From contig CAJTWC010000003.1 in assembly GCA_910580185.1 (NCBI GenBank), forward strand, positions 34,304-98,303: 64,000 nt of DNA, written 5' to 3'. Positions 13,498-32,409 of this stretch are shown piece by piece. The first letter of the stretch is position 1, and each line of letters starts with the position of its first letter. This DNA is from an uncultured Bacilli bacterium (GTDB lineage: Bacteria; Bacillota_I; Bacilli_A; RF39; UBA660). Made by a program: the position numbers and the translations under genes. Under the pieces are notes generated by a model. It saw only the letters and a list, made by a program, of their open reading frames with translations, made no database searches and was not told the DNA's origin.

Positions 13498-15003
13498 ATG
13501 AGAGAGTTAACAGAACAAGAAATAGTAAGAAGAGGAAAAAAAGAAAAAATTGAAGAATTAGGGATTGATCCATTTGGACATAGTTTTAAAAGAAATGCTT
13601 TTGCAAAAGATATAAAAGAAAAATATAAGGATGTAGAACACGATGAATTTGAAAACATAACTGATGAAGTTGTAGTGGCTGGTAGAATTATGTTTATAAG
13701 AAAAATGGGTAAAGCTTCATTTTTCTCACTTAGTGATAAAACAGGTCCAATTCAAGTATACATATCAATAAATGACATTGGCGAAGATAGTTATAATTTA
13801 TTTAAAAGTGCTGATTTAGGAGACATAGTAGGTGTTCGCGGTAAAGTTATGAAAACCAGAACTGGCGAAATTACAATTAAATGTTTAGAATATACTCATT
13901 TAGTTAAAGCCTTAAGACCACTTCCAGAAAAATTTCACGGATTGAAAGATAAAGAAGAAAGATACAGAAGGCGTTATTTAGATTTAATAACTAATGATGA
14001 GGCTAAACGTGTTGCATTTATGCGTCCAAAAATTATTAGATGTATTCAAAACTTCCTTGATGAAAGAGGTTTTACTGAAGTTGAAACTCCAATTTTAACA
14101 ACACTACTTACCGGTGCTTCCGCAAGACCATTTGTAACACATCATAATACACAAGACCTAGATATGTATTTAAGAGTTGCATTAGAACTTAGTTTAAAAA
14201 GGCTACTTGTCGGTGGCATGGAAAGTGTTTATGAAATAGGTAGAACATTTAGAAATGAAGGAATGGATCCTCAGCATAATCCGGAATTTACCCTAATGGA
14301 AATATATCAAGCATATTCAGATTTAGAAGGCATGATGGATTTAACCGAAGATATGTATCAAACAATTGCAAAAAAAGTATGTGGTAAGATGACATTTAAC
14401 TATCTAGGGCACGAAATAAACCTTGATGGTAAATGGAAAAGAGTTTCTATGGTAGATGCTATTAAAGAACAAACAGGAATAGATTTTAGTAAACAAATGA
14501 CAGATGAAGAAGCTATAAGATTAGCAGAAGAACACAATATAGAGCTTGAAGAACACGAAAAAAGCTTTGGACACGTAGTAAATTTATTCTTTGAAAAATA
14601 CGTAGAAGAAACATTAATTCAGCCAACGTTCCTTTACGATCATCCACTTGAAATTTCGCCGCTTACTAAAAAGAACCCAAAAGACCCTAGATTTGTAGAT
14701 AGATTTGAATTATTTATATCTGGACACGAATGTGCAAACGCATATACGGAATTAAATGATCCAATAGATCAATTAGAAAGATTTGAAGCGCAATTAAAAG
14801 AAAAAGAATTAGGAAATGATGAAGCAAACGATATAGATATGGACTTTATAGAAGCTTTAGAATATGGTATGCCTCCAGCAGGTGGTATAGGATATGGTAT
14901 TGATAGATTAATAATGCTATTTACAGAACAACCATCTATTAGGGACGTATTATTATTCCCATTAATGAAGCCTGAAAATGATCAAAATAAAAAAGAGAGT
15001 TAG
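13498..15003 (+). CDS. lysS: lysine--tRNA ligase (class II)
   Basis: Typical LysS sequence, 501 aa, class II motifs (FRNEG, GGIGYGIDRL); AAGGAG RBS. Confidence 0.95.
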   Translation: MRELTEQEIVRRGKKEKIEELGIDPFGHSFKRNAFAKDIKEKYKDVEHDEFENITDEVVVAGRIMFIRKMGKASFFSLSDKTGPIQVYISINDIGEDSYNLFKSADLGDIVGVRGKVMKTRTGEITIKCLEYTHLVKALRPLPEKFHGLKDKEERYRRRYLDLITNDEAKRVAFMRPKIIRCIQNFLDERGFTEVETPILTTLLTGASARPFVTHHNTQDLDMYLRVALELSLKRLLVGGMESVYEIGRTFRNEGMDPQHNPEFTLMEIYQAYSDLEGMMDLTEDMYQTIAKKVCGKMTFNYLGHEINLDGKWKRVSMVDAIKEQTGIDFSKQMTDEEAIRLAEEHNIELEEHEKSFGHVVNLFFEKYVEETLIQPTFLYDHPLEISPLTKKNPKDPRFVDRFELFISGHECANAYTELNDPIDQLERFEAQLKEKELGNDEANDIDMDFIEALEYGMPPAGGIGYGIDRLIMLFTEQPSIRDVLLFPLMKPENDQNKKES

Positions 15004-17839: not shown

Positions 17840-20014
17840 ATGAAAGGAAAATTTGTTAAAAGAATAATTATATTCTTTGTAGTCATAGCATTATTTAGTT
17901 TAATATACATTCCACTATTTAATGATATGAAGTTTGGCCTTGATTTAAAAGGCGGATTTGAAGTGTTATATCAAGTTAAAAGAAGTGATGGTAAAAAGCT
18001 TGCCTCTAGTGATATGAGTAGCACTTATGACGTTTTAAAAAGAAACGTTGATTCTTTAGGTGTATCAGAACCTGAAATAACAATGGAAGGGACTGATAGA
18101 ATAAGAGTAAAATTAGCAGGTGTAACTGATATTGAAGGTGCAAGACGTGCATTATCAAACGTTGCTAACATATCATTTAGGGATACCGATGATAAGTTAT
18201 TAATGGATGCTAGTGTTATAAGTGGAGCTAAATTATCTTATGATGAATCTGGAAAGCCTGCTATTTCTTTACAAGTAAAAGATAAGGAAAAGTTTTTAGC
18301 AGCTACTACGGAAATTAGTAAGAAAGAATCTGGCAAAAACTTAATGGTAATATGGTATAACTATGAAAATGGTGTTAACTCATATGCCAAAGATAGTGAA
18401 ACTTGTGGTGAAGAAGGAAGTCTATGTTTATCTGCCGCAACTGTTTCTCAAGGATTTTCATCTGATGTTATCATAACTGGTAATTTTGAAAAAGAAGAAG
18501 CAGAAAGCTTAGCAACTAGTATTAATGCTGGTTCTATTTCAACAAAGCTTACTGAAATATCTTCTCAAAACGTTAATGCATCATATGGTGAAGGAGTTCT
18601 TACTAAAACTTTTACCGCAGGCATCATAGGTATGATATTAGTTATATTATTCATGACGATACTATATAAGTTTTATGGCTTTATATCAGGTGTTAACTTA
18701 CTTTTATATATGTTATTAGTTATGGGAGTTTTTTGGTTAATAGGTGGAGTTTTAACTCTTCCTGGTATTGCAGCATTAGTCTTAGGTATAGGTATGGCGG
18801 TTGATTCTTGCGTTGTTACAAGTGAAAGAATAAAAGAAGAATTACAATCTGGTAAAAATTTAAAAACTGCTTATGAAAATGGAAACAAGGAGTCTTGGAG
18901 TACGATATTCGATGCTAATGTTACAACGTTTATAGTTGCAATCGTATTATTCATTTTTGGTGAATCTTCAATTAAAGGTTTTGCAACAATGCTTATGATT
19001 ACCATATTTGCAACTATGTTTATTATGGTATTTATAAATAGACAAATATTAAAGGCTTTTGTAAAAACAAACATTTTCGATAAAAAGCCTAATATATTTA
19101 TTAAGTTCGAAAAGAAAAATAATAAATCATTAAAGAAAATAAAGATAAATTCAATTAAGATAATTAAAAAATGCATTACTATTACCTTAATATACTTAGT
19201 TATAGGCGTTATATTTTTAGCAGTTAATGGTCTTAACTTAGGAATAGATTTTAAAGCTGGGTCAGATATTACTTTAAGCGCTGATAATATGAAAACATCG
19301 GAAGTAAAAAAAGATTTAGAGGATATGGGATATAAAGTAGCATCTATTACAAAACAAGAAAATAACGAAATATACGTAAGATTAAATAACGAATTAAAAG
19401 AAGATGGAATAAATAAAGTAAATAATCATTTCGAAGAAAAATATAATGCTAAAACTGAAATTAACGTTGTAACTAACATAGTTAAACAAGAACTTGTTAA
19501 AAACGCAATATATTCAGTTTTAATAGCAGCGGTTGCAATAATAATTTATATTTCATTTAGATTTAAATTTAGTTATGCAATATCATCAATATTAGCACTT
19601 GCACATGACGTTTTATTCGTAATAATATTATTTAGTATATTTAAAATAGAAGTTAATGTTATATTTATCGCAGCTTTATTAACAATAGTTGGTTACTCAA
19701 TTAATAATACGATAGTGGTATTTGATCGTATTAGAGAAAATCTTGGCAAATTTAAAAAGAAACTTACTAAAGAAGAATTAAAAGGCGTTGTAAATGATAG
19801 CATATCTAATACGTTTAATAGATCGTTATATACTACAATTACTACGTTAATACCAGTTATTTGCTTAATAATATTTGGTTCTAAAGGAATATTACCATTT
19901 AATATCGCAATGATATTTGGGCTTGTTGCTGGTTGCTATTCATCAATGCTTCTAGCAGGACAAATATGGTATTTAATTGAAAAGAAAAATTGTAAAAAAG
20001 AAAATAATAAATAA
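17840..20014 (+). CDS. secDF: protein translocase subunit SecDF (fused)
   Basis: Length around 725 aa with two SecD/SecF-type 6-TM bundles and periplasmic domains; start is the ATG at 17840 (AAGGA RBS) or at 17831. Confidence 0.9.
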   Translation: MKGKFVKRIIIFFVVIALFSLIYIPLFNDMKFGLDLKGGFEVLYQVKRSDGKKLASSDMSSTYDVLKRNVDSLGVSEPEITMEGTDRIRVKLAGVTDIEGARRALSNVANISFRDTDDKLLMDASVISGAKLSYDESGKPAISLQVKDKEKFLAATTEISKKESGKNLMVIWYNYENGVNSYAKDSETCGEEGSLCLSAATVSQGFSSDVIITGNFEKEEAESLATSINAGSISTKLTEISSQNVNASYGEGVLTKTFTAGIIGMILVILFMTILYKFYGFISGVNLLLYMLLVMGVFWLIGGVLTLPGIAALVLGIGMAVDSCVVTSERIKEELQSGKNLKTAYENGNKESWSTIFDANVTTFIVAIVLFIFGESSIKGFATMLMITIFATMFIMVFINRQILKAFVKTNIFDKKPNIFIKFEKKNNKSLKKIKINSIKIIKKCITITLIYLVIGVIFLAVNGLNLGIDFKAGSDITLSADNMKTSEVKKDLEDMGYKVASITKQENNEIYVRLNNELKEDGINKVNNHFEEKYNAKTEINVVTNIVKQELVKNAIYSVLIAAVAIIIYISFRFKFSYAISSILALAHDVLFVIILFSIFKIEVNVIFIAALLTIVGYSINNTIVVFDRIRENLGKFKKKLTKEELKGVVNDSISNTFNRSLYTTITTLIPVICLIIFGSKGILPFNIAMIFGLVAGCYSSMLLAGQIWYLIEKKNCKKENNK

Positions 20015-20030
20015 GAAAAGAGTGATTTTA

Positions 20031-22193
20031 ATGAAGCTAAAAGAAAAAGCATACACACTTGATGATTTAATTAAAAAAGCAAGTGAATATATAAAAATTG
20101 ATGAACAAATCGAAGTAATTAAAAAAGCTTATTCTTTTGCTTATAAAGCTCATTTTGGAGATAAGAGACTAACGGGTGATGATTTTATTCTTCACCCTTT
20201 AAACGTTGCTTTGATTCTTACTGAAATATACGCAGATTACGAAACCCTTGCAACCGCGTTATTGCACGATGTAATTAATTTTTCAAACATAACATTAGAA
20301 GAAGTAGAAAAAGAATTTGGCACTGAAATAAGAAATTTAGTTGATGGCATCTCAAAGATAAATAAGTTATCGTTATCGGCAGAATCTAATGCAACAGCTA
20401 CTTACTACAAAAAAATACTAGTTGGGTTATCTGGAGATGTACGTATAATTATATTAAAAGTCGCTGATCGTCTTCATAATATGAGAACTTTATGGGCTAT
20501 ACCAGAAAATAAAAGAAAAGAAAAAGCAAAAGAAACATTAGAAATACTTGTTCCAATAGCGCATGGTCTTGGTATTAATCATATAAAAAGTGAGTTAGAA
20601 GATTTATGTTTAAAATATTATAATCCTGATGTTTATAATGATATCTTAGAAAAATTAAACGAAACAAGGCAAGAGTTAGATGAATCTGTAAATCAAATGA
20701 TGCAAAGCGTATCAAAAGTATTAACAGAAAATAACATTCCTCATGAAATGAAGGGTAGAAGTAAAAGCGTTTATAGTATATATAGAAAACTTCAAAAAGG
20801 TAAATCATTTAATGAAATATATGATATATTAGCACTTCGCTTTTTTGTTAAAACAGAAGCTGAATGTTATTTAGCATTAGGCGCAATACACGCTAAATTT
20901 AAACCAGTTCCAAGAAGATTTAAAGATTATGTTGCAAGGCCAAAGGCAAATGGTTACCAATCTTTACATACTACGGTATTTGGAGTTGATGGTAAGTTAT
21001 TTGAAATTCAAATTAGAACCTATGATATGGATTATGTTGCAGAATATGGTTTTGCATCTCACTGGTCATATAAAGAAGGCACTGCAAAACGAAAAAATAA
21101 CCTAGAAGAAAAATTAATGTCTTTTAGAAATATAATTGAATTAAATGAACAGCAAGTAGAATCAGAAGAAGAATTTGTAAACGTAGTTAAAAACGAGGTA
21201 TTTAATTCTAAAAACATATACGTATATACGCCAAAAGGAGACGTATTTGAACTTCCTCTTGGATCTACACCAATAGATTTTGCGTATAGAGTTCACACTT
21301 CAATTGGGCACCAAATGGTAGGAGCAATTGTAAATAATATGATTGCGCCGCTTAATTACCAATTAAAAGATGGAGATATTGTTAAAATAAACACTAATAA
21401 AAATAGTAAGGGTCCATCTAAAGAATGGATTAATATAGCTTTTACAACTAGTGCTAAAAATAAAATAAAAGCTTTCTTTAGCAAAGTTGATAAAGATGAA
21501 ATGATTAATAAAGGAAAAGATGCTTTATTAAAAACCATACGAAGAAAAAAATTATCTATTAATGATGTACTAGACAATAAAGCAGTTGAAAAAGCACTTG
21601 TAGAATATAACTTAGATAGTGAAAATGATTTATATTATGAAATAGGTATAGGTAAATATAATCCTACTTCCATAATCAAAACTATAATTGGAATAACTAA
21701 TGATGAAAATGATTCAGTAAAGAAAATTCTAAAGAATGCATCTAACGTAAGCGACCCTAAAGGAGATGTATTAGTAGATGGTATAAATGGTATAAAAGTA
21801 TCCTTTGGTGGATGTTGTATGCCAGTTTATGGAGATGATATCGTTGGTTACATTTCAAAAGGCAATGGAATTACGATTCATAGAAAAAATTGCCATAATA
21901 TTTTTGAGGGAAATGATAGACTAATACACGTAGATTGGAATGAAAAACTAAATAAAAAATATATTACAAACGTTTTAATCTATGCTGACAAAAAAGATGA
22001 CTTATTAGCCAATATAATTACCAAAACAACTTCTATGGGAATTGGTGTTAAAAGTGTTAATACGATATTAAATAACGATATATACATATTTGATTTAAAT
22101 GTATTAGTTACTGATAATGAAGTGCTTGACAAATATATCGCTGCTATATCGAATGTAGCAGGGGTTAGTGAAGTTCAAAGGGGCAATAAATAA
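20031..22193 (+). CDS. relA: GTP pyrophosphokinase / (p)ppGpp synthetase-hydrolase RelA/SpoT
   Basis: HD-domain LLHDV motif, synthetase domain, TGS and ACT regions; about 720 aa; the start was chosen after the secDF stop. Confidence 0.9.
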   Translation: MKLKEKAYTLDDLIKKASEYIKIDEQIEVIKKAYSFAYKAHFGDKRLTGDDFILHPLNVALILTEIYADYETLATALLHDVINFSNITLEEVEKEFGTEIRNLVDGISKINKLSLSAESNATATYYKKILVGLSGDVRIIILKVADRLHNMRTLWAIPENKRKEKAKETLEILVPIAHGLGINHIKSELEDLCLKYYNPDVYNDILEKLNETRQELDESVNQMMQSVSKVLTENNIPHEMKGRSKSVYSIYRKLQKGKSFNEIYDILALRFFVKTEAECYLALGAIHAKFKPVPRRFKDYVARPKANGYQSLHTTVFGVDGKLFEIQIRTYDMDYVAEYGFASHWSYKEGTAKRKNNLEEKLMSFRNIIELNEQQVESEEEFVNVVKNEVFNSKNIYVYTPKGDVFELPLGSTPIDFAYRVHTSIGHQMVGAIVNNMIAPLNYQLKDGDIVKINTNKNSKGPSKEWINIAFTTSAKNKIKAFFSKVDKDEMINKGKDALLKTIRRKKLSINDVLDNKAVEKALVEYNLDSENDLYYEIGIGKYNPTSIIKTIIGITNDENDSVKKILKNASNVSDPKGDVLVDGINGIKVSFGGCCMPVYGDDIVGYISKGNGITIHRKNCHNIFEGNDRLIHVDWNEKLNKKYITNVLIYADKKDDLLANIITKTTSMGIGVKSVNTILNNDIYIFDLNVLVTDNEVLDKYIAAISNVAGVSEVQRGNK

Positions 22194-26507: not shown

Positions 26508-26753
26508 GTGATATTTTTGGCTAATAAATCTAATAATTATAGTGATAGTAACTTAAACGAGTATGATATTAGAAATTTTTTAAAAAAAGATGAAGAAAGA
26601 AAAGCTTTTCAAAGGGATAAAGTAAAAATAGAAGTTGGAGATCTTCCTAATATTCTTGATGGATCAAGTTTTTATGATCCGTATAAAAAGGGAGTTTCTT
26701 TTAAAAGCCCTGATGGAAAATCAAAAGTTTTTTCTAAAGACTGTATTATATAA
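26508..26753 (+). CDS. small hypothetical protein (TTG start)
   Basis: AGAGGTG RBS 6 nt before the TTG; 81 aa. Confidence 0.3.
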   Translation: MIFLANKSNNYSDSNLNEYDIRNFLKKDEERKAFQRDKVKIEVGDLPNILDGSSFYDPYKKGVSFKSPDGKSKVFSKDCII

Positions 26754-26759
26754 TAGTAT

Positions 26760-26788
26760 TTGACTAATCTTTAAAAATATAATAAAAT
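26760..26788 (+). promoter_or_regulatory. sigma70-like promoter (-35 TTGACT, 17-nt spacer, -10 TAAAAT) driving the T-box leader
   Basis: Read directly from the sequence. Confidence 0.45.
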
Positions 26789-26793
26789 ATATT

Positions 26794-26935
26794 TAGTTTT
26801 TAGTAAGAAGTGACAACTTACAAATAAAATAAAAACTAGACAATTAAATAATATAAACAAAGAGCACTTATGTGAAATAGGGTGGCACCGTGGACAGATT
26901 TGTTCATCCCTATAACTTTAAGGCTCTTTTTATTT
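26794..26935 (+). promoter_or_regulatory. T-box-like leader RNA upstream of the GATase-hisS-ORF-aspS operon
   Basis: AAUAGGGUGGCACCGUGG at 26876-26893 matches the T-box consensus AAUUAGGGUGGNACCGCGG. A candidate antiterminator can be drawn as AGGG / 7-nt bulge UGGCACC / 7-bp helix GUGGACA:UGUUCAU / CCCU. A short stem-loop at 26794-26838 has a GAC (Asp) codon in its apical loop. A U-run lies at 26925-26935. A canonical terminator helix could not be drawn. Confidence 0.45.
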
Positions 26936-26949
26936 AATAAGGAGTGCTT

Positions 26950-27570
26950 ATGAAAAAAGTAGCAATATTACTTAGACTTAATAGAAAAGAAGAAAACGCT
27001 AAAGAAACGTTTTGGATAAAAGAAGACGTGATTAATGTTTTCAAAAATTATGATGTTAACTATTTTCTAATTCCTATGAATACCGCTTCGAATGATGATT
27101 ATGATAACATCATTGAAAAGATAAAGATGGCAGACGGTGTTATTATTCCAGGAGGAGTACGTGGTGGTTCTAAAATGGAACTAGATATTGTTAAATATTT
27201 ATATGATAATGATATCCCAACCATCGGTGTTTGCTTCGGACATCAAAGTATGGGCGTAGTATTTGGTGGTAAAAAAGAAAACGTAGAGGGCCACCATAAA
27301 TTAGGAGAAAAATATGTCCATTATGTTAATATAAATAAGGATTCTTTATTATATAAGATAATAGGTAAAGAAAGATTACTAGTTAATAGTAAACATAAAA
27401 AAATAGTTGTTGGTACAAGCTTGGATATTTCAGCATATAATGATGAAAATATGCCAGAAGCATTTGAAGATAAAACTAAAAAATGTTTTATAGGAGTACA
27501 ATGGCATCCAGAAAGTATAATGGATCTTGATAACAAAAAAATATTTGATTACTTTATAAGTAAGTTATAG
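26950..27570 (+). CDS. class I glutamine amidotransferase-like protein (peptidase C26 / gamma-glutamyl hydrolase family)
   Basis: GVCFGHQ nucleophile motif and QWHPE; AAGGAG RBS 7 nt upstream of the ATG at 26950. Confidence 0.65.
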   Translation: MKKVAILLRLNRKEENAKETFWIKEDVINVFKNYDVNYFLIPMNTASNDDYDNIIEKIKMADGVIIPGGVRGGSKMELDIVKYLYDNDIPTIGVCFGHQSMGVVFGGKKENVEGHHKLGEKYVHYVNINKDSLLYKIIGKERLLVNSKHKKIVVGTSLDISAYNDENMPEAFEDKTKKCFIGVQWHPESIMDLDNKKIFDYFISKL

Positions 27571-27583
27571 AAAGGAAGATATT

Positions 27584-28939
27584 ATGATAACTAAACCAAA
27601 AGGAACAAAAGATATTTATGGGGTAGAAGCTAAAAGATGGCAGTACGTATCTAAGGTAATAGACGAGGTAATGGAAAAGTATAATTATAACTTTATACGT
27701 GTTCCAGTATTTGAAGCAAGCGAATTATTTCATAGAGGAGTTGGAGAAACAACTGATATAGTAACAAAAGAAACTTATGATTTTACTGATCGTGGTGGTC
27801 GATGCATGACTCTTAGACCAGAAGGTACTGCGGGAGTTGCTAGATGTTTCATTGAAAATAAAATGTATGGTGATAATAACCAGCCAATAAAACTTTATTA
27901 TAATTGTCCGATGTATCGATATGAAAGACCACAAGCAGGAAGATATAGAGAACTTACTCAATTTGGTTATGAACTTATTGGAAGTGATGATCCACTAGCA
28001 GATGCTGAAGTAATAAGCCTTGCCGTTAACATATATAAAATACTTGGTTTAAAGGGAATTAAAGTTAATATTAACTCATTAGGGGATGCTGAATCTAGAA
28101 ATAACTATAGAGAAGCTTTAATTAATCACTTTAAACCACATATAGATGAGTTATGCTCTGATTGCAAAGAAAGATTAGAGAAAAACCCTTTAAGAATACT
28201 TGATTGTAAAGTTGATGCTGATAAAGAAGTTATGAAGACGGCTCCTAAAACAATAGATTACCTAAATAAAGAATCTAAAGAAAGATTTGAGAAAGTAAAA
28301 GAGTATTTAGAAGTTATGGGCGTTGAATACATAGTTGATCCATCAGTAGTTAGGGGTCTTGATTATTATAATCATACCGTGTTTGAAGTAGAAGCTGATA
28401 TTGAAGGATTTGGTGCTCAAAACGTTATTGGTGGTGGAGGCCGTTATAATGGCATGATAGAGCAGTTAGGCGGGCCTAGTACTCCAGCGATTGGTTTTGC
28501 AGCAGGCTTTGATAGACTAATGCTTGCTTTAGAGTATGAAAAGGTAAATATACCGGTAAATGAAAGCGTAGATTTGTTCTTACTATACGTAAATGATGAT
28601 GAGAAAAAATACGCTGCATACTTAACTAATGAACTTAGAATGAATGGTTTTGTTGTAGAAACCGATTATTTAAATAGAAGCTTAAAAGCAGGATTTAAAC
28701 AAGCCGATAGGTTAAATAGTAAATTCACTATCGTACTTAATAGTGAAATGTTAGAAAATAACGAAGTCAAAATTAAAAATAATAAAACTAAAGAAGAAGA
28801 AACTATATCAATAGATGCACTAATTTATTATTTAGATGAAAATATAATAGAAGATGAAAATTGTGGATGCTCGCATGATGATCATGAATGTGGTTGTGGT
28901 GATTCATGCAAGTGTCACAACAAGGATAATAATGAATAA
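27584..28939 (+). CDS. hisS: histidine--tRNA ligase with an unusual Cys/His-rich C-terminal tail
   Basis: Typical HisS N-terminus MITKPKGTKDIYG and class II motifs; 451 aa; C-terminus ENCGCSHDDHECGCGDSCKCH. Confidence 0.95.
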   Translation: MITKPKGTKDIYGVEAKRWQYVSKVIDEVMEKYNYNFIRVPVFEASELFHRGVGETTDIVTKETYDFTDRGGRCMTLRPEGTAGVARCFIENKMYGDNNQPIKLYYNCPMYRYERPQAGRYRELTQFGYELIGSDDPLADAEVISLAVNIYKILGLKGIKVNINSLGDAESRNNYREALINHFKPHIDELCSDCKERLEKNPLRILDCKVDADKEVMKTAPKTIDYLNKESKERFEKVKEYLEVMGVEYIVDPSVVRGLDYYNHTVFEVEADIEGFGAQNVIGGGGRYNGMIEQLGGPSTPAIGFAAGFDRLMLALEYEKVNIPVNESVDLFLLYVNDDEKKYAAYLTNELRMNGFVVETDYLNRSLKAGFKQADRLNSKFTIVLNSEMLENNEVKIKNNKTKEEETISIDALIYYLDENIIEDENCGCSHDDHECGCGDSCKCHNKDNNE

Positions 28940-29495
28940 TTTCGAAATAAAAGAGCTTATAAGACAAAAATTTAATGCTATATCAGATCCAGTAGTTGCT
29001 AAAAACTATGATGGTTTTATTGATCAAGATGGATACTTTTATGCATCTGCCCTTAAGTATCGACATGAACCAAGTCATGCTGATTTAGCCCTTGATATAT
29101 TAACTTACTATGATATCATAGTAAATGATGAAAAAGGTGGAATCTTTAGCAAGGTAAAAGAATTCATGTTTTCATATGTAAAAGATGATTATGAAAGAAA
29201 AAAATTGGCGCATTTAAAAGCTCACGTTAATCCAACTAAAGAATTAATTGAAAAATTAAAATTTATGTATTATAGTCATTCTCAAAAAGCCAACAGAAGG
29301 CCTATTATAGAAATAAATGATATGGGAATAGTAAGTAGAGAACAAAAAAATATGTTGATAAGTATTTTACAATTAAATAATGAGTTATCTTTTTTACCAG
29401 ATGATTTAATAGGCGCTAAAAAAGAAGAAATGCACCAAAGATATGTTGATAACTATATTATAAAAAATATGAATAAGGAGAATATAAACAAATGA
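28932..29495 (+). CDS. hypothetical protein inserted between hisS and aspS
   Basis: The ATG overlaps the hisS stop (ATGAATAA); 187 aa; no known motifs. Confidence 0.45.
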   Translation: MNNFEIKELIRQKFNAISDPVVAKNYDGFIDQDGYFYASALKYRHEPSHADLALDILTYYDIIVNDEKGGIFSKVKEFMFSYVKDDYERKKLAHLKAHVNPTKELIEKLKFMYYSHSQKANRRPIIEINDMGIVSREQKNMLISILQLNNELSFLPDDLIGAKKEEMHQRYVDNYIIKNMNKENINK

Positions 29496-30793
29496 TTAAT
29501 TATAAAGAATGTATAAATAAAAAAATTACAATATCTGGCTTTGCTGAAAAGGTTAGAAATCTTCAATGGGTACAATTTATAGTACTTAGAAATGAAGGTC
29601 AAAGAATTCAAGTCACTATTGAAAAGTCTGATGAAAAAAATAAAGAAATGGTTGAAATTGTAGATAAGTTAACCAACGAGTCAACCATTACGGTAACTGG
29701 AACAATAAAGGAAAATGAAAAAGTTAAGATGGGCGGTATGGAGCTAATCCCAGAATCTATTACCGTAACTAGCTTATCAGCGCCTGAACTTCCTATTAAC
29801 ATAACTAATAAGGATGCAGCAGCAATTGATACTAGAATGGATAATAGATTTATTGACCTTAGAAACGATGTTAATTTTCATATATTTAAAATACAAACTG
29901 AATTCGTAAGAGCGATGAGACAGTATTTATATCAAGAAGATTTCACTGAAATTCATACTCCAAAATTAATTGGAGCAGCATCAGAATCAGGTAGTGAAGT
30001 ATTCGAAGTTGATTACTTTGGAGATAAAGCATATCTTGCTCAATCACCACAATTTTATAAACAAATGGCAATAGCAGCAGGATATGAAAGGGTATTTGAA
30101 GTAGCGCCAGCATTTAGAGCAGAAAATTCAAACACTAATAGACACGCAACAGAATTCACTTCATTTGACTTAGAATTTGCTAACATAAGATCATATGAGG
30201 ATGTTATGGCCGTCGAAGAAGACCTTTTAGTAGAAGGCCTTACTGCAGTTAAAGAAAAATATGGAGATTTAATAAAAGAATTATATGGCGTTGACGTAGT
30301 AGTTCCAACTAGGCCATTCCCTAGAATAGACTTACAAGATTTATATAAAGAATTAAGTGAAAGATATGGTTATAAAGTACCCGATCATGATATTGGTGAT
30401 ATGAATGCCGAAGCAGAAAAATTAACTAGTCGTTATGCGATGGACGTATATGGTCATGAATTTATCTTTGTAACTGGTTTTAGTAAAGCAAAAAGACCAT
30501 TCTACCACATGAGAAAAGATGGTATTCCTCAAGGTTATGACCTTATCTGGAAAGGTACTGAAATAACAACTGGGGCACAAAGAGAACATAGATACGATGT
30601 GTTAGAAGCTCAAGCAAACGAAAAAGGTTTAGGAGAGGATATTAAATTTTATAAAGACTTCTTTAAATATGGATGTCCACCACACGGAGGCTTTGCGCTT
30701 GGAATTGATAGAATGACAATGTTACTTTTAGGATTACCATCATTAAAAGAAACAATGTTCTTATTTAGAGGGCCAAACAGAATTACACCTTAA
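29492..30793 (+). CDS. aspS: aspartate--tRNA ligase, archaeal/type-2 (short, about 433 aa)
   Basis: Class IIb motifs (FRAENSNTNRHATEF; GGFALGIDRMTMLLLGL); C-terminal ...FRGPNRITP ending typical of AspRS2; much shorter than the roughly 590-aa bacterial AspS. Confidence 0.8.
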   Translation: MINYKECINKKITISGFAEKVRNLQWVQFIVLRNEGQRIQVTIEKSDEKNKEMVEIVDKLTNESTITVTGTIKENEKVKMGGMELIPESITVTSLSAPELPINITNKDAAAIDTRMDNRFIDLRNDVNFHIFKIQTEFVRAMRQYLYQEDFTEIHTPKLIGAASESGSEVFEVDYFGDKAYLAQSPQFYKQMAIAAGYERVFEVAPAFRAENSNTNRHATEFTSFDLEFANIRSYEDVMAVEEDLLVEGLTAVKEKYGDLIKELYGVDVVVPTRPFPRIDLQDLYKELSERYGYKVPDHDIGDMNAEAEKLTSRYAMDVYGHEFIFVTGFSKAKRPFYHMRKDGIPQGYDLIWKGTEITTGAQREHRYDVLEAQANEKGLGEDIKFYKDFFKYGCPPHGGFALGIDRMTMLLLGLPSLKETMFLFRGPNRITP

Positions 30794-32224: not shown

Positions 32225-32230
32225 ATAAAT

Positions 32231-32409
32231 GCCTAAAGGTATCGGGCGCTAGCACATTTAACCCGCTAAGATTTAATAGGGAATCAGAATCAATAGTGGT
32301 GTTCATGCTTAAATTTATTTAAGAAGTCTAAAACTATTGTGGGATGCCCACCTGCGAGAATTGCAGGTTTATCTTGTTAGCAAACGACCCTTTGGGTTCT
32401 TTTTTTTTA
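32231..32409 (+). ncRNA. candidate stand-alone structured small RNA of about 180 nt, identity undetermined
   Basis: The locally GC-richer segment lies between a strong promoter and an intrinsic terminator (ACGACCC-UUU-GGGUUCU followed by U9). It contains adjacent hairpins GUGGG-AUGC-CCCAC and CCUGC-GAGAAUU-GCAGG. There is no long ORF, and the downstream gene has its own TTGACG/TAACAT promoter. Confidence 0.35.

Follow-up and report, generated by a model that had tools for sequence, protein, structure and literature searches.

A reduced T-box-like leader with an apparent aspartate specifier upstream of a hisS-aspS operon in an uncultured Bacilli bacterium

How much of a T-box riboswitch can be lost before it stops reading a tRNA? 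The question is raised by a leader of about 140 nt at the 5′ end of a GATase-hisS-ORF-aspS operon (GATase, class I glutamine amidotransferase/peptidase C26; ORF, open reading frame). The operon lies in a 64,000-nt stretch of DNA from an uncultured Bacilli bacterium (contig CAJTWC010000003.1, positions 34,304–98,303 of the forward strand), here called the window. All coordinates are window positions, with the leader region at 26760–26950, and are collected in Table 1. A first-pass annotation, made from the letters of the window, had read the leader as a T-box with an Asp (GAC) specifier and a bulge matching a tRNA with discriminator base G73. It had drawn a promoter, a stem-loop presenting GAC-A in its apical loop, and the T-box core with its antiterminator and UGGCACC bulge. 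Each of these elements was found in its place, the promoter by a consensus scan, and RNAfold reproduced the fold of the antiterminator. What was observed is thus confirmed, and the reading as a T-box, somewhat refined, is supported: full-length T-boxes in relatives, the invariance of the loop GAC and the presence of aspS in the operon all back it. On this evidence the leader is probably a reduced, transcription-attenuating T-box riboswitch that would respond to uncharged tRNA-Asp.

The compact leader and its full-length relatives

The T-box core, AAUAGGGUGGCACCGUGG, was verified by a direct sequence check. A single copy of its 13-nt core, GGGTGGNACCRYG, is present in the window, where 0.04 would be expected by chance, and the whole leader is more stable than shuffled sequence (RNAfold, z = −3.0). 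HisRS places the window among uncultured gut Bacilli (‘Tenericutes/Mycoplasmatota’ metagenome-assembled genomes), and 80 species-representative hisS loci were used for comparison. In 75 of these 80 loci a T-box core with a UGGC bulge lies upstream of hisS or of the immediately preceding gene. Group A, made up of the window and 19 loci with HisRS identities of 80% or more, shares the compact leader throughout, with the promoter hexamers equally distant; hexamers and spacing are kept in all relatives with a compact leader, and the sequence of the spacer is variable. Another 16 contigs from metagenomes carry the compact leader too, in each case at the 5′ end of a hisS-aspS operon. One locus with an 87% identical HisRS (L004, 600–850) has no leader, hisS following straight after a DUF2207-like gene, which points to loss of the T-box in that species.

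The more distant relatives of Group B (HisRS 67–73% identical) carry leaders of about 200 nt directly upstream of hisS, and these score 81–102 bits with the Rfam T-box model RF00230. Their Stem I has every feature of the canonical form: an AGAGA bulge, the distal loop GGUGAAA and, as specifier side loop, AAGAGUA...GAA-GAC-A; they also have a CG...CGUUA element and the same UGGC bulge as the compact form. Because these relatives hold a full-length T-box in the same place, with the same specifier and the same bulge, the compact leader is, on comparative evidence, a reduced descendant of an Asp-specific full-length T-box and not a chance look-alike. By descent and by its discriminator domain it is, as judged from these comparisons, a T-box. 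The Group A sequence UUAGUA-AGAAGUGACA-GCUU would be what is left of the ancestral specifier loop, its two sides (AGAGUA ... AGAAGACA-UCC) having been joined when everything above them was lost.

The helices of the compact leader were then assessed by covariation, a check that the first-pass annotation had proposed. A MAFFT alignment mis-registered the 5′ hairpin, from which RNAalifold gave a wrong 4-bp Stem I. It was replaced by a hand-anchored alignment of 27 distinct compact leaders, including those from metagenomes, that was built on invariant motifs with N as the gap symbol; counts out of 27 below refer to this set. The structure of the ON state (Stem I lower and upper helices, Stem III, A1 and A2) was paired in 98.8% of the cells of this alignment. 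Six pairs showed compensatory double changes, with at least one in each of the five helices, and none of 500 column shuffles scored as high. When the partners were slid by 1–3 columns, pairing dropped to 40–50%. The lower helix of Stem I was 96% paired, with A-U/U-A (9/11) and G-C/A-U (25/2) exchanges, and the lengths of its U-run and A-run co-vary (U5/A5 versus U4/A4). The upper helix was 100% paired (G-C/A-U, 26/1), as were Stem III, with one compensatory change (CGC/GCG in L094), and A2, whose top pair alternates between C-G and G-C. A1 was 99% paired, its outer pair being A-U, G-U or G-C. The compensatory counts are modest because the sequences are closely related, but they are consistent and spread over all helices.

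The discriminator domain of a T-box consists of 5′-RRRxG-Stem III-AA-3′, then A1, then a bulge of 7 nt with a UGGN that binds the NCCA end of the tRNA, and finally A2, at whose base a G·U pair serves as the chief steric sensor of the aminoacyl group (PMC7583486). The compact leader has a purine string AAGAG, invariant in all 27, followed by Stem III, the flanking AA, A1, the 7-nt bulge and A2. The basal pair of A2 is G26890·U26907 in the window, and at this position 23 leaders have G·U and four have G-C. Measured against the structure-derived description, with its RRRxG-Stem III-AA motif and its G·U pair at the foot of A2, the leader has a complete discriminator domain. The bulge begins with UGGC in 26/27 leaders and with UGGU in one. 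The latter, a metagenome variant (L081:4486–4573, minus strand), has the bulge UGGUACC and keeps the loop GAC; G73 could pair there only by a U·G wobble.

A UGGC bulge implies a tRNA with G73, which bacterial tRNA-Asp and tRNA-Asn carry, tRNA-His having C73 (PMC9976931). The first-pass annotation had named both tRNA-Asp and tRNA-Asn as tRNAs with G73. G73 does fit both, but tRNA-Asn is an unlikely ligand, since the triplet is GAC and never AAC.

The first-pass annotation had also named two results that would speak against a T-box: the absence of an RF00230 match, and the absence of the core motif upstream of hisS in related genomes. The second is clearly not what was found, given the conservation described above, whereas the first very nearly is. 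At the gathering threshold of RF00230 (93 bits) a scan of the window returned no T-box match, which counts against the T-box reading. A permissive scan of the 64 kb did not list RF00230 at E ≤ 1, nor any other sub-threshold T-box in the window. When 401 nt were scanned in isolation, RF00230 scored 31.6 bits (E = 1.9e-5) with a full-length alignment. In this alignment the T-box sequence and antiterminator match almost perfectly, Stem II and Stem IIA/B are deleted, and 7 nt stand in for 74 model positions of Stem I. The compact leader of L007 gave no RF00230 match at E ≤ 1e-3. Set against what defines membership of RF00230, the compact leader falls short in its lack of a long Stem I, in the register of its terminator and in its Rfam score; it agrees in the T-box bulge, the discriminator motif, the specifier with its purine, and homology at an orthologous locus. 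Since by the Rfam criterion it is not a T-box, the case stands on the comparative evidence. Other T-box cores were sought on both strands of the window and in all 98 loci, and were found in hisS leaders only. A core match at L050:8023 has no A1 partner strand and was put down to chance, as were a few matches in coding regions.

Upstream of the discriminator domain, the decoding domain of the compact leader is minimal. Transcription is predicted from the promoter to start at the foot of the first hairpin, a miniature Stem I of about 13 bp in all. The K-turn, the S-turn specifier side bulge and the elbow platform formed by the AG bulge and distal loop are absent from it. The apical loop has 8 nt; in minimum free energy (MFE) folds A26815 is unpaired and the loop has 9 nt. 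The loop sequence GUGACA is invariant (27/27), while column identity is 85% in the internal loop, 71% in the linker, 66% in the A2 loop and 68% in the segment after A1. The loop is fixed on its 3′ side, where GAC-A-R leads into the stem, and varies by 1–3 A on its 5′ side. A triplet followed by a purine is what is looked for in a specifier, and aspS, the gene to which this triplet corresponds, sits in the operon. From these features we infer that the GAC of the apical loop is the specifier.

The loop of a tRNA anticodon arm is laid out as U33-NNN-R37. With U before and a purine after the GAC, on a stem of 5 bp, the contact with tRNA-Asp is expected to resemble a loop-loop complex between two anticodons. 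Metagenomes were searched for the compact hairpin and T-box with a loop triplet starting with A, C or U, and no match was obtained. A relaxed pattern scan of the metagenomes returned 16 true compact leaders, all with GAC and all before hisS; two further matches, L088 and L090, were dismissed as chance. Between Stem I and the discriminator domain, where Stem II and Stem IIA/B would be, there is a linker (20–23 nt) in which no conserved pairing was found and mean column identity is 0.71.

The terminator-type hairpin and the weighing of alternatives

A textbook T-box terminator builds its 5′ strand from the 3′ strands of A1 and A2 (PMC7583486). No terminator of this kind had been seen in the window's leader by the first-pass annotation, rightly so: none exists, in compact or in full-length leaders. 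It had pointed instead to a 7-bp clamp, AAAGAGC/GCUCUUU, with a U-run behind it. Both are present, but the clamp is more than a clamp; it is the base of a long terminator-type hairpin, the likely OFF state, and Stem III had gone unrecognised. GCUCUUU is followed by UUUUAUUU, and the U-tract, through 26934, is UUUUUAUU. Inside the long hairpin the A1-bulge-A2 unit stays intact, while the purine string and both strands of Stem III are taken up by the lower stem.

The long hairpin was the MFE structure in all 24 compact leaders that were folded, at −20 to −28 kcal/mol. Without the 3′ segment, Stem III and the antiterminator formed, at −11 to −15 kcal/mol. The lower stem of the hairpin is 93.6% paired across the compact leaders, and CUUA/UAAG alternates with CUUU/AAAG (A-U 10, U-A 5). 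In L096 the 3′ strand is another one, AUUUAGGUGUUUUU, and it pairs without interruption to the same target. A run of U5–U7 follows the hairpin in every compact sequence. These folds predict that the element exclusive with the terminator is Stem III with its purine latch, and not the antiterminator.

The hairpins of Group B (L021–L080, about 60 nt upstream of hisS) do not follow the textbook register either. There the partner of the terminator 3′ strand (GGUUGCCAUCUU, for example) is AAGGUGGCACC, the 5′ strand of the T-box together with the bulge, and this hairpin is also nested, enclosing the A2 hairpin. A recognisable Stem III is missing from most Group B leaders and present in L058, L059 and L070.

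The following sequence of events is proposed for the compact leader. During transcription, the anticodon GUC of tRNA-Asp would pair with the loop GAC in a complex like that between two anticodon loops, and the free 3′-GCCA end of the same tRNA with the UGGC of the bulge. Stem III and the purine string would then dock on the duplex between tRNA and bulge, as in known T-box discriminators. A docked latch would be kept from the terminator 3′ strand GCUCUUU, and polymerase would pass the U-tract and transcribe GATase-hisS-aspS. If tRNA-Asp is aminoacylated or absent, the latch would remain unengaged and the 3–4 bp of Stem III could be invaded. The hairpin would then zip up to its GAGC/GCUC base, and transcription would stop at the U-tract.

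Beyond the Rfam result, several points weigh against a decoding, transcription-attenuating T-box. The main reason for caution is that transcriptional T-boxes generally need the elbow platform of a long Stem I, and that a truncated Stem I without Stem II shows barely any tRNA binding (PMC7583486); two short contacts, of 3 bp and 4 bp, may be insufficient. Termination, antitermination and tRNA binding of the compact leader are all deduced from sequence and predicted folds. The antiterminator and the terminator are not mutually exclusive, so the switch would hang on a Stem III of 3–4 bp and on tertiary docking of the purine string. A simple terminator scan fails to call the hairpin, whose lower stem is A/U-rich and interrupted. 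An alternative register of upper Stem I, AAGU/ACUU, closes a GACA tetraloop and would hide the triplet. Every compact leader has the same triplet, and there is no natural specifier swap among them. G73 is implied by the bulge, and no tRNA-Asp gene was seen in the window or the loci for comparison: the window has no tRNA genes, and the loci gave only tRNA-Met and tRNA-Leu, in L058. Finally, a second GAC, in GACAA, lies just 3′ of Stem I and is conserved in 25/27 leaders.

Could the leader have given up decoding altogether? It would then be a degenerate T-box whose discriminator samples any uncharged G73 tRNA, or a constitutive partial terminator, with the 5′ hairpin as a stabiliser or folding aid. 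The loss of both the elbow platform and the Stem II domain favours this, as does the scant tRNA binding just cited, and no variant triplet exists to prove decoding. A hairpin that merely stabilises has, however, no need of a conserved loop sequence, and GUGACA is invariant next to an internal loop, linker and A2 loop that are 66–85% identical. Moreover, the triplet is the specifier of the full-length ancestor type, and it stands at a constant distance from the 3′ strand of the stem, whereas the loop drifts in length on the 5′ side. We regard the loss of decoding as unlikely. It is very improbable that the second GAC (26840–26842) is the specifier and the hairpin a remnant of distal Stem I. The loop GUGACA is faintly like the distal loop GGUGAAA of the full-length relatives and UAGACAAU resembles the ancestral UAGAAGACAU, but the second triplet is AAC in L007 and GGC in L015, two leaders in which the UGGC bulge and the loop GAC are unchanged. 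The spacing between this second triplet and the helix varies by 0–3 nt; since the transcript begins at the foot of the hairpin, no 5′ partner strand is available to close a specifier loop around it; and a lone T-loop-like loop without an AG bulge cannot build the interdigitated platform. The second GACAA may instead be a remnant of the ancestral specifier region.

We also think translational or dual control quite unlikely. The pyrimidine strand GCUCUUUUU would toggle between AAAGAGC, leaving the Shine-Dalgarno (SD) sequence free, and the A-rich spacer with AAGGAG, hiding it; the U-run would be part of the sequestrator helix, instead of or besides a terminator tail. When the ON state was enforced, the freed strand paired with the A-rich spacer and the SD (region 26923–26944), and the probability that the SD is unpaired was <0.2 in about 20 of 25 compact leaders, compared with 0.5–0.95 when the long hairpin was formed. 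Between the two full-length states the median energy difference is only 4 kcal/mol, and short Stem I’s are otherwise known only from translational T-boxes (PMC7583486). The polarity is wrong, however: the tRNA-bound discriminator fold would hide the SD, so that starvation would repress the synthetases. The same occlusion was seen in 25 of 53 full-length relatives, which makes it largely a generic effect of a pyrimidine-rich strand beside a purine-rich SD. L019 and L096 escape it, and the SD lies outside the conserved structure, behind a variable spacer, 5–10 nt past the U-run in most relatives and 5–18 nt overall. The hairpin followed by U5–7 has the layout of an intrinsic terminator, and the full-length relatives share it. 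These considerations leave transcription attenuation in response to uncharged tRNA-Asp as the reading that we prefer.

The operon and its surroundings

In the operon itself, aspS follows hisS in 77 of the 80 loci, and the position of the leader is always the operon's 5′ end. GATase stands between leader and hisS only in the window and in L001, L002, L003, L016 and L020, where the leader precedes GATase; without GATase, the leader is about 65 nt before hisS. GATase was recruited into the putatively tRNA-Asp-controlled operon in this subset of species. The 213-aa ORF is patchily conserved (11 loci, 27–70% identity). Two unrelated types of enzyme occupy the aspS slot. In the window and most genomes with a compact leader it holds the archaeal-type non-discriminating AspRS (81–95% identical). 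In L007, L009, L013 and most genomes with a full-length leader, among them L033, L041, L058 and L070, it holds a homologue of about 30% identity, presumably of the bacterial type. One gene thus seems to have displaced another inside a single T-box operon.

A 6S RNA (RF00013) was detected about 1.4 kb downstream of aspS, and 6S matches lie at a similar distance from hisS in L007, L023, L026, L027, L028, L032 and L062, a case of conserved synteny. Between the DUF2207 gene and the leader there is a GTG-initiated ORF of 81 aa with promoter-like sites of its own; it gave no family match and has no homologue in any fetched locus. The only other synthetase gene in the window is of class II (D/K/N), probably lysS, and stands 17 nt after the preceding ORF without a leader. 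Some 5 kb separate the T-box operon from a RelA/SpoT-family gene on its upstream side.

Table 1. Positions of the leader elements, the operon genes and neighbouring features in the window
Feature	Position	Strand	Basis or detail
Sigma-70-type promoter TTGACT-17-TAAAAT	26760–26788	+	consensus scan, 10/12 positions
Leader, 5′ end of the GATase-hisS-ORF-aspS operon		+	about 140 nt
Transcription start	~26795–26796		predicted from the promoter
Miniature Stem I	26795–26838	+	RNAfold and pair counts, 27 distinct leaders
Stem I lower helix, AGUUUUUA with UAAAAACU	26795–26802 with 26831–26838		8 bp, A/U
Stem I upper helix, GUAAG with CUUAC	26803–26807 with 26816–26820		5 bp
Stem I apical loop, AAGUGACA	26808–26815		
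Proposed specifier GAC (Asp)	26812–26814	+	U26811 before, A26815 after
Stem I internal loop	26821–26830		3′ asymmetric, A-rich
Linker	26839–26858	+	A/U-rich, single-stranded
Second GACAA	26840–26844		distance of GAC from the stem varies by 0–3 nt
Long hairpin and U-tract (OFF state)	26859–26934	+	MFE fold and covariation
Hairpin lower stem, AAAGAGC with GCUCUUU	26859–26865 with 26923–26929		
Further hairpin pairs, CUUA with UAAG	26867–26870 with 26919–26922		
Further hairpin pairs, GU with AC	26872–26873 with 26915–26916		
U-tract	through 26934		
Discriminator latch	26860–26876	+	
Purine string AAGAG	26860–26864		
Stem III, CAC with GUG	26865–26867 with 26872–26874		loop UUAU
Flanking AA	26875–26876		
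T-box core	26876–26893		direct sequence check
Antiterminator	26877–26914	+	Rfam alignment, RNAfold, RNAalifold
A1, AUAGGG with CCCUAU	26877–26882 with 26909–26914		
T-box bulge UGGCACC	26883–26889		
A2, GUGGACA with UGUUCAU	26890–26896 with 26901–26907		loop GAUU
Shine-Dalgarno AAGGAG and start codon of the GATase gene	26939–26953	+	AAGGAG 26939–26944, ATG 26951; sequence, Pfam
Operon, regulated in the preferred reading	26951–30793	+	Pfam and NCBIfam
GATase	26951–27570	+	Pfam
hisS	27584–28939	+	TIGR00442, 488 bits
213-aa ORF	~28854–29495	+	overlaps the hisS end as listed; no Pfam/NCBIfam match
aspS, archaeal-type non-discriminating	29492–30793	+	aspartate--tRNA(Asn) ligase NF003483, 454 bits
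6S RNA	32227–32402	+	RF00013, 65 bits, E = 1.4e-10
81-aa ORF	26508–26753		
Class II (D/K/N) synthetase gene, probably lysS	13498–15003		
RelA/SpoT-family gene	19977–22193		

Relation to known T-boxes

With class I T-boxes of RF00230, such as B. subtilis tyrS and the full-length leaders of L021–L080, the compact leader shares the 7-nt UGGN-ACC bulge between A1 and A2, the RRRxG-Stem III-AA element and the basal G·U of A2. It also shares with them a hairpin with a U-tract, a place upstream of aminoacyl-tRNA synthetase genes, and a specifier with its purine that matches a gene of the operon. Its genomic position is homologous to that of the full-length hisS-aspS leaders of its clade. Unlike class I T-boxes, it has no long Stem I platform, no Stem II and no Stem IIA/B, and it measures about 140 nt against some 200–300 nt; its terminator, moreover, surrounds the antiterminator and has the purine string and Stem III as pairing partners, not the 3′ strands of A1 and A2 as its 5′ strand. 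Closest in the absence of Stem II and IIA/B are the glyQS T-boxes, which lack both naturally and are of the transcription type. Their lack of Stem II has been put down to the strong codon-anticodon duplex GGC:GCC (PMC7583486), to which the GAC:GUC duplex of the compact leader, with two G-C pairs, may be compared. In contrast to the compact leader, glyQS retains a long Stem I with its elbow-binding platform, which is required for its function.

The first-pass annotation had likened the truncated Stem I to that of actinobacterial ileS T-boxes. The likeness holds for the specifier, which in the latter also lies in the apical loop, Stem I being truncated above it (Sherwood et al. 2015, cited in PMC7583486), and for the missing elbow platform and the conserved discriminator. 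It goes no further: these class II T-boxes, with short or ultrashort Stem I, depend on Stem II (S-turn) and the IIA/B pseudoknot for tRNA binding, which make up for the absent platform, where the compact leader has only a linker, and they act on translation by sequestering the SD, through an anti-SD in the antisequestrator 3′ strand and without a terminator, where the compact leader has a hairpin with a U-tract and an SD outside the switch. Their hosts are Actinobacteria, not low-GC Bacilli.

A literature search found no earlier minimal or compact T-box, nor a transcriptional T-box with a short Stem I, and no description was found of a T-box that unites a short Stem I and a terminator-type platform with the absence of Stem II and IIA/B. 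We put forward, tentatively and as somewhat short of probable, that the compact leader may represent a fourth archetype of T-box, which at about 140 nt would be the smallest in nature. Such an archetype would attenuate transcription with an anticodon-arm-like hairpin, making a loop-loop GAC:GUC contact, and a discriminator only, without platform or Stem II, and its terminator would compete for Stem III and the purine latch while the antiterminator is not unzipped.

In the current view, transcriptional T-boxes need the platform of a long Stem I for fast capture of tRNA, and truncation of Stem I makes Stem II and IIA/B essential (PMC7583486). If the proposed reading is true, it becomes directly testable how little RNA suffices to decode a tRNA and check its charging during transcription, and whether the purine latch of Stem III may on its own serve as the switch. 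A tRNA sensor of 140 nt would also be an attractive minimal part for engineering. The compact leaders score far below the Rfam T-box threshold and fall outside the search strategy of TBDB (PMC7778990). Since they escape both resources, the T-box regulons of uncultured gut Bacilli (‘Tenericutes’-like) are probably under-annotated.

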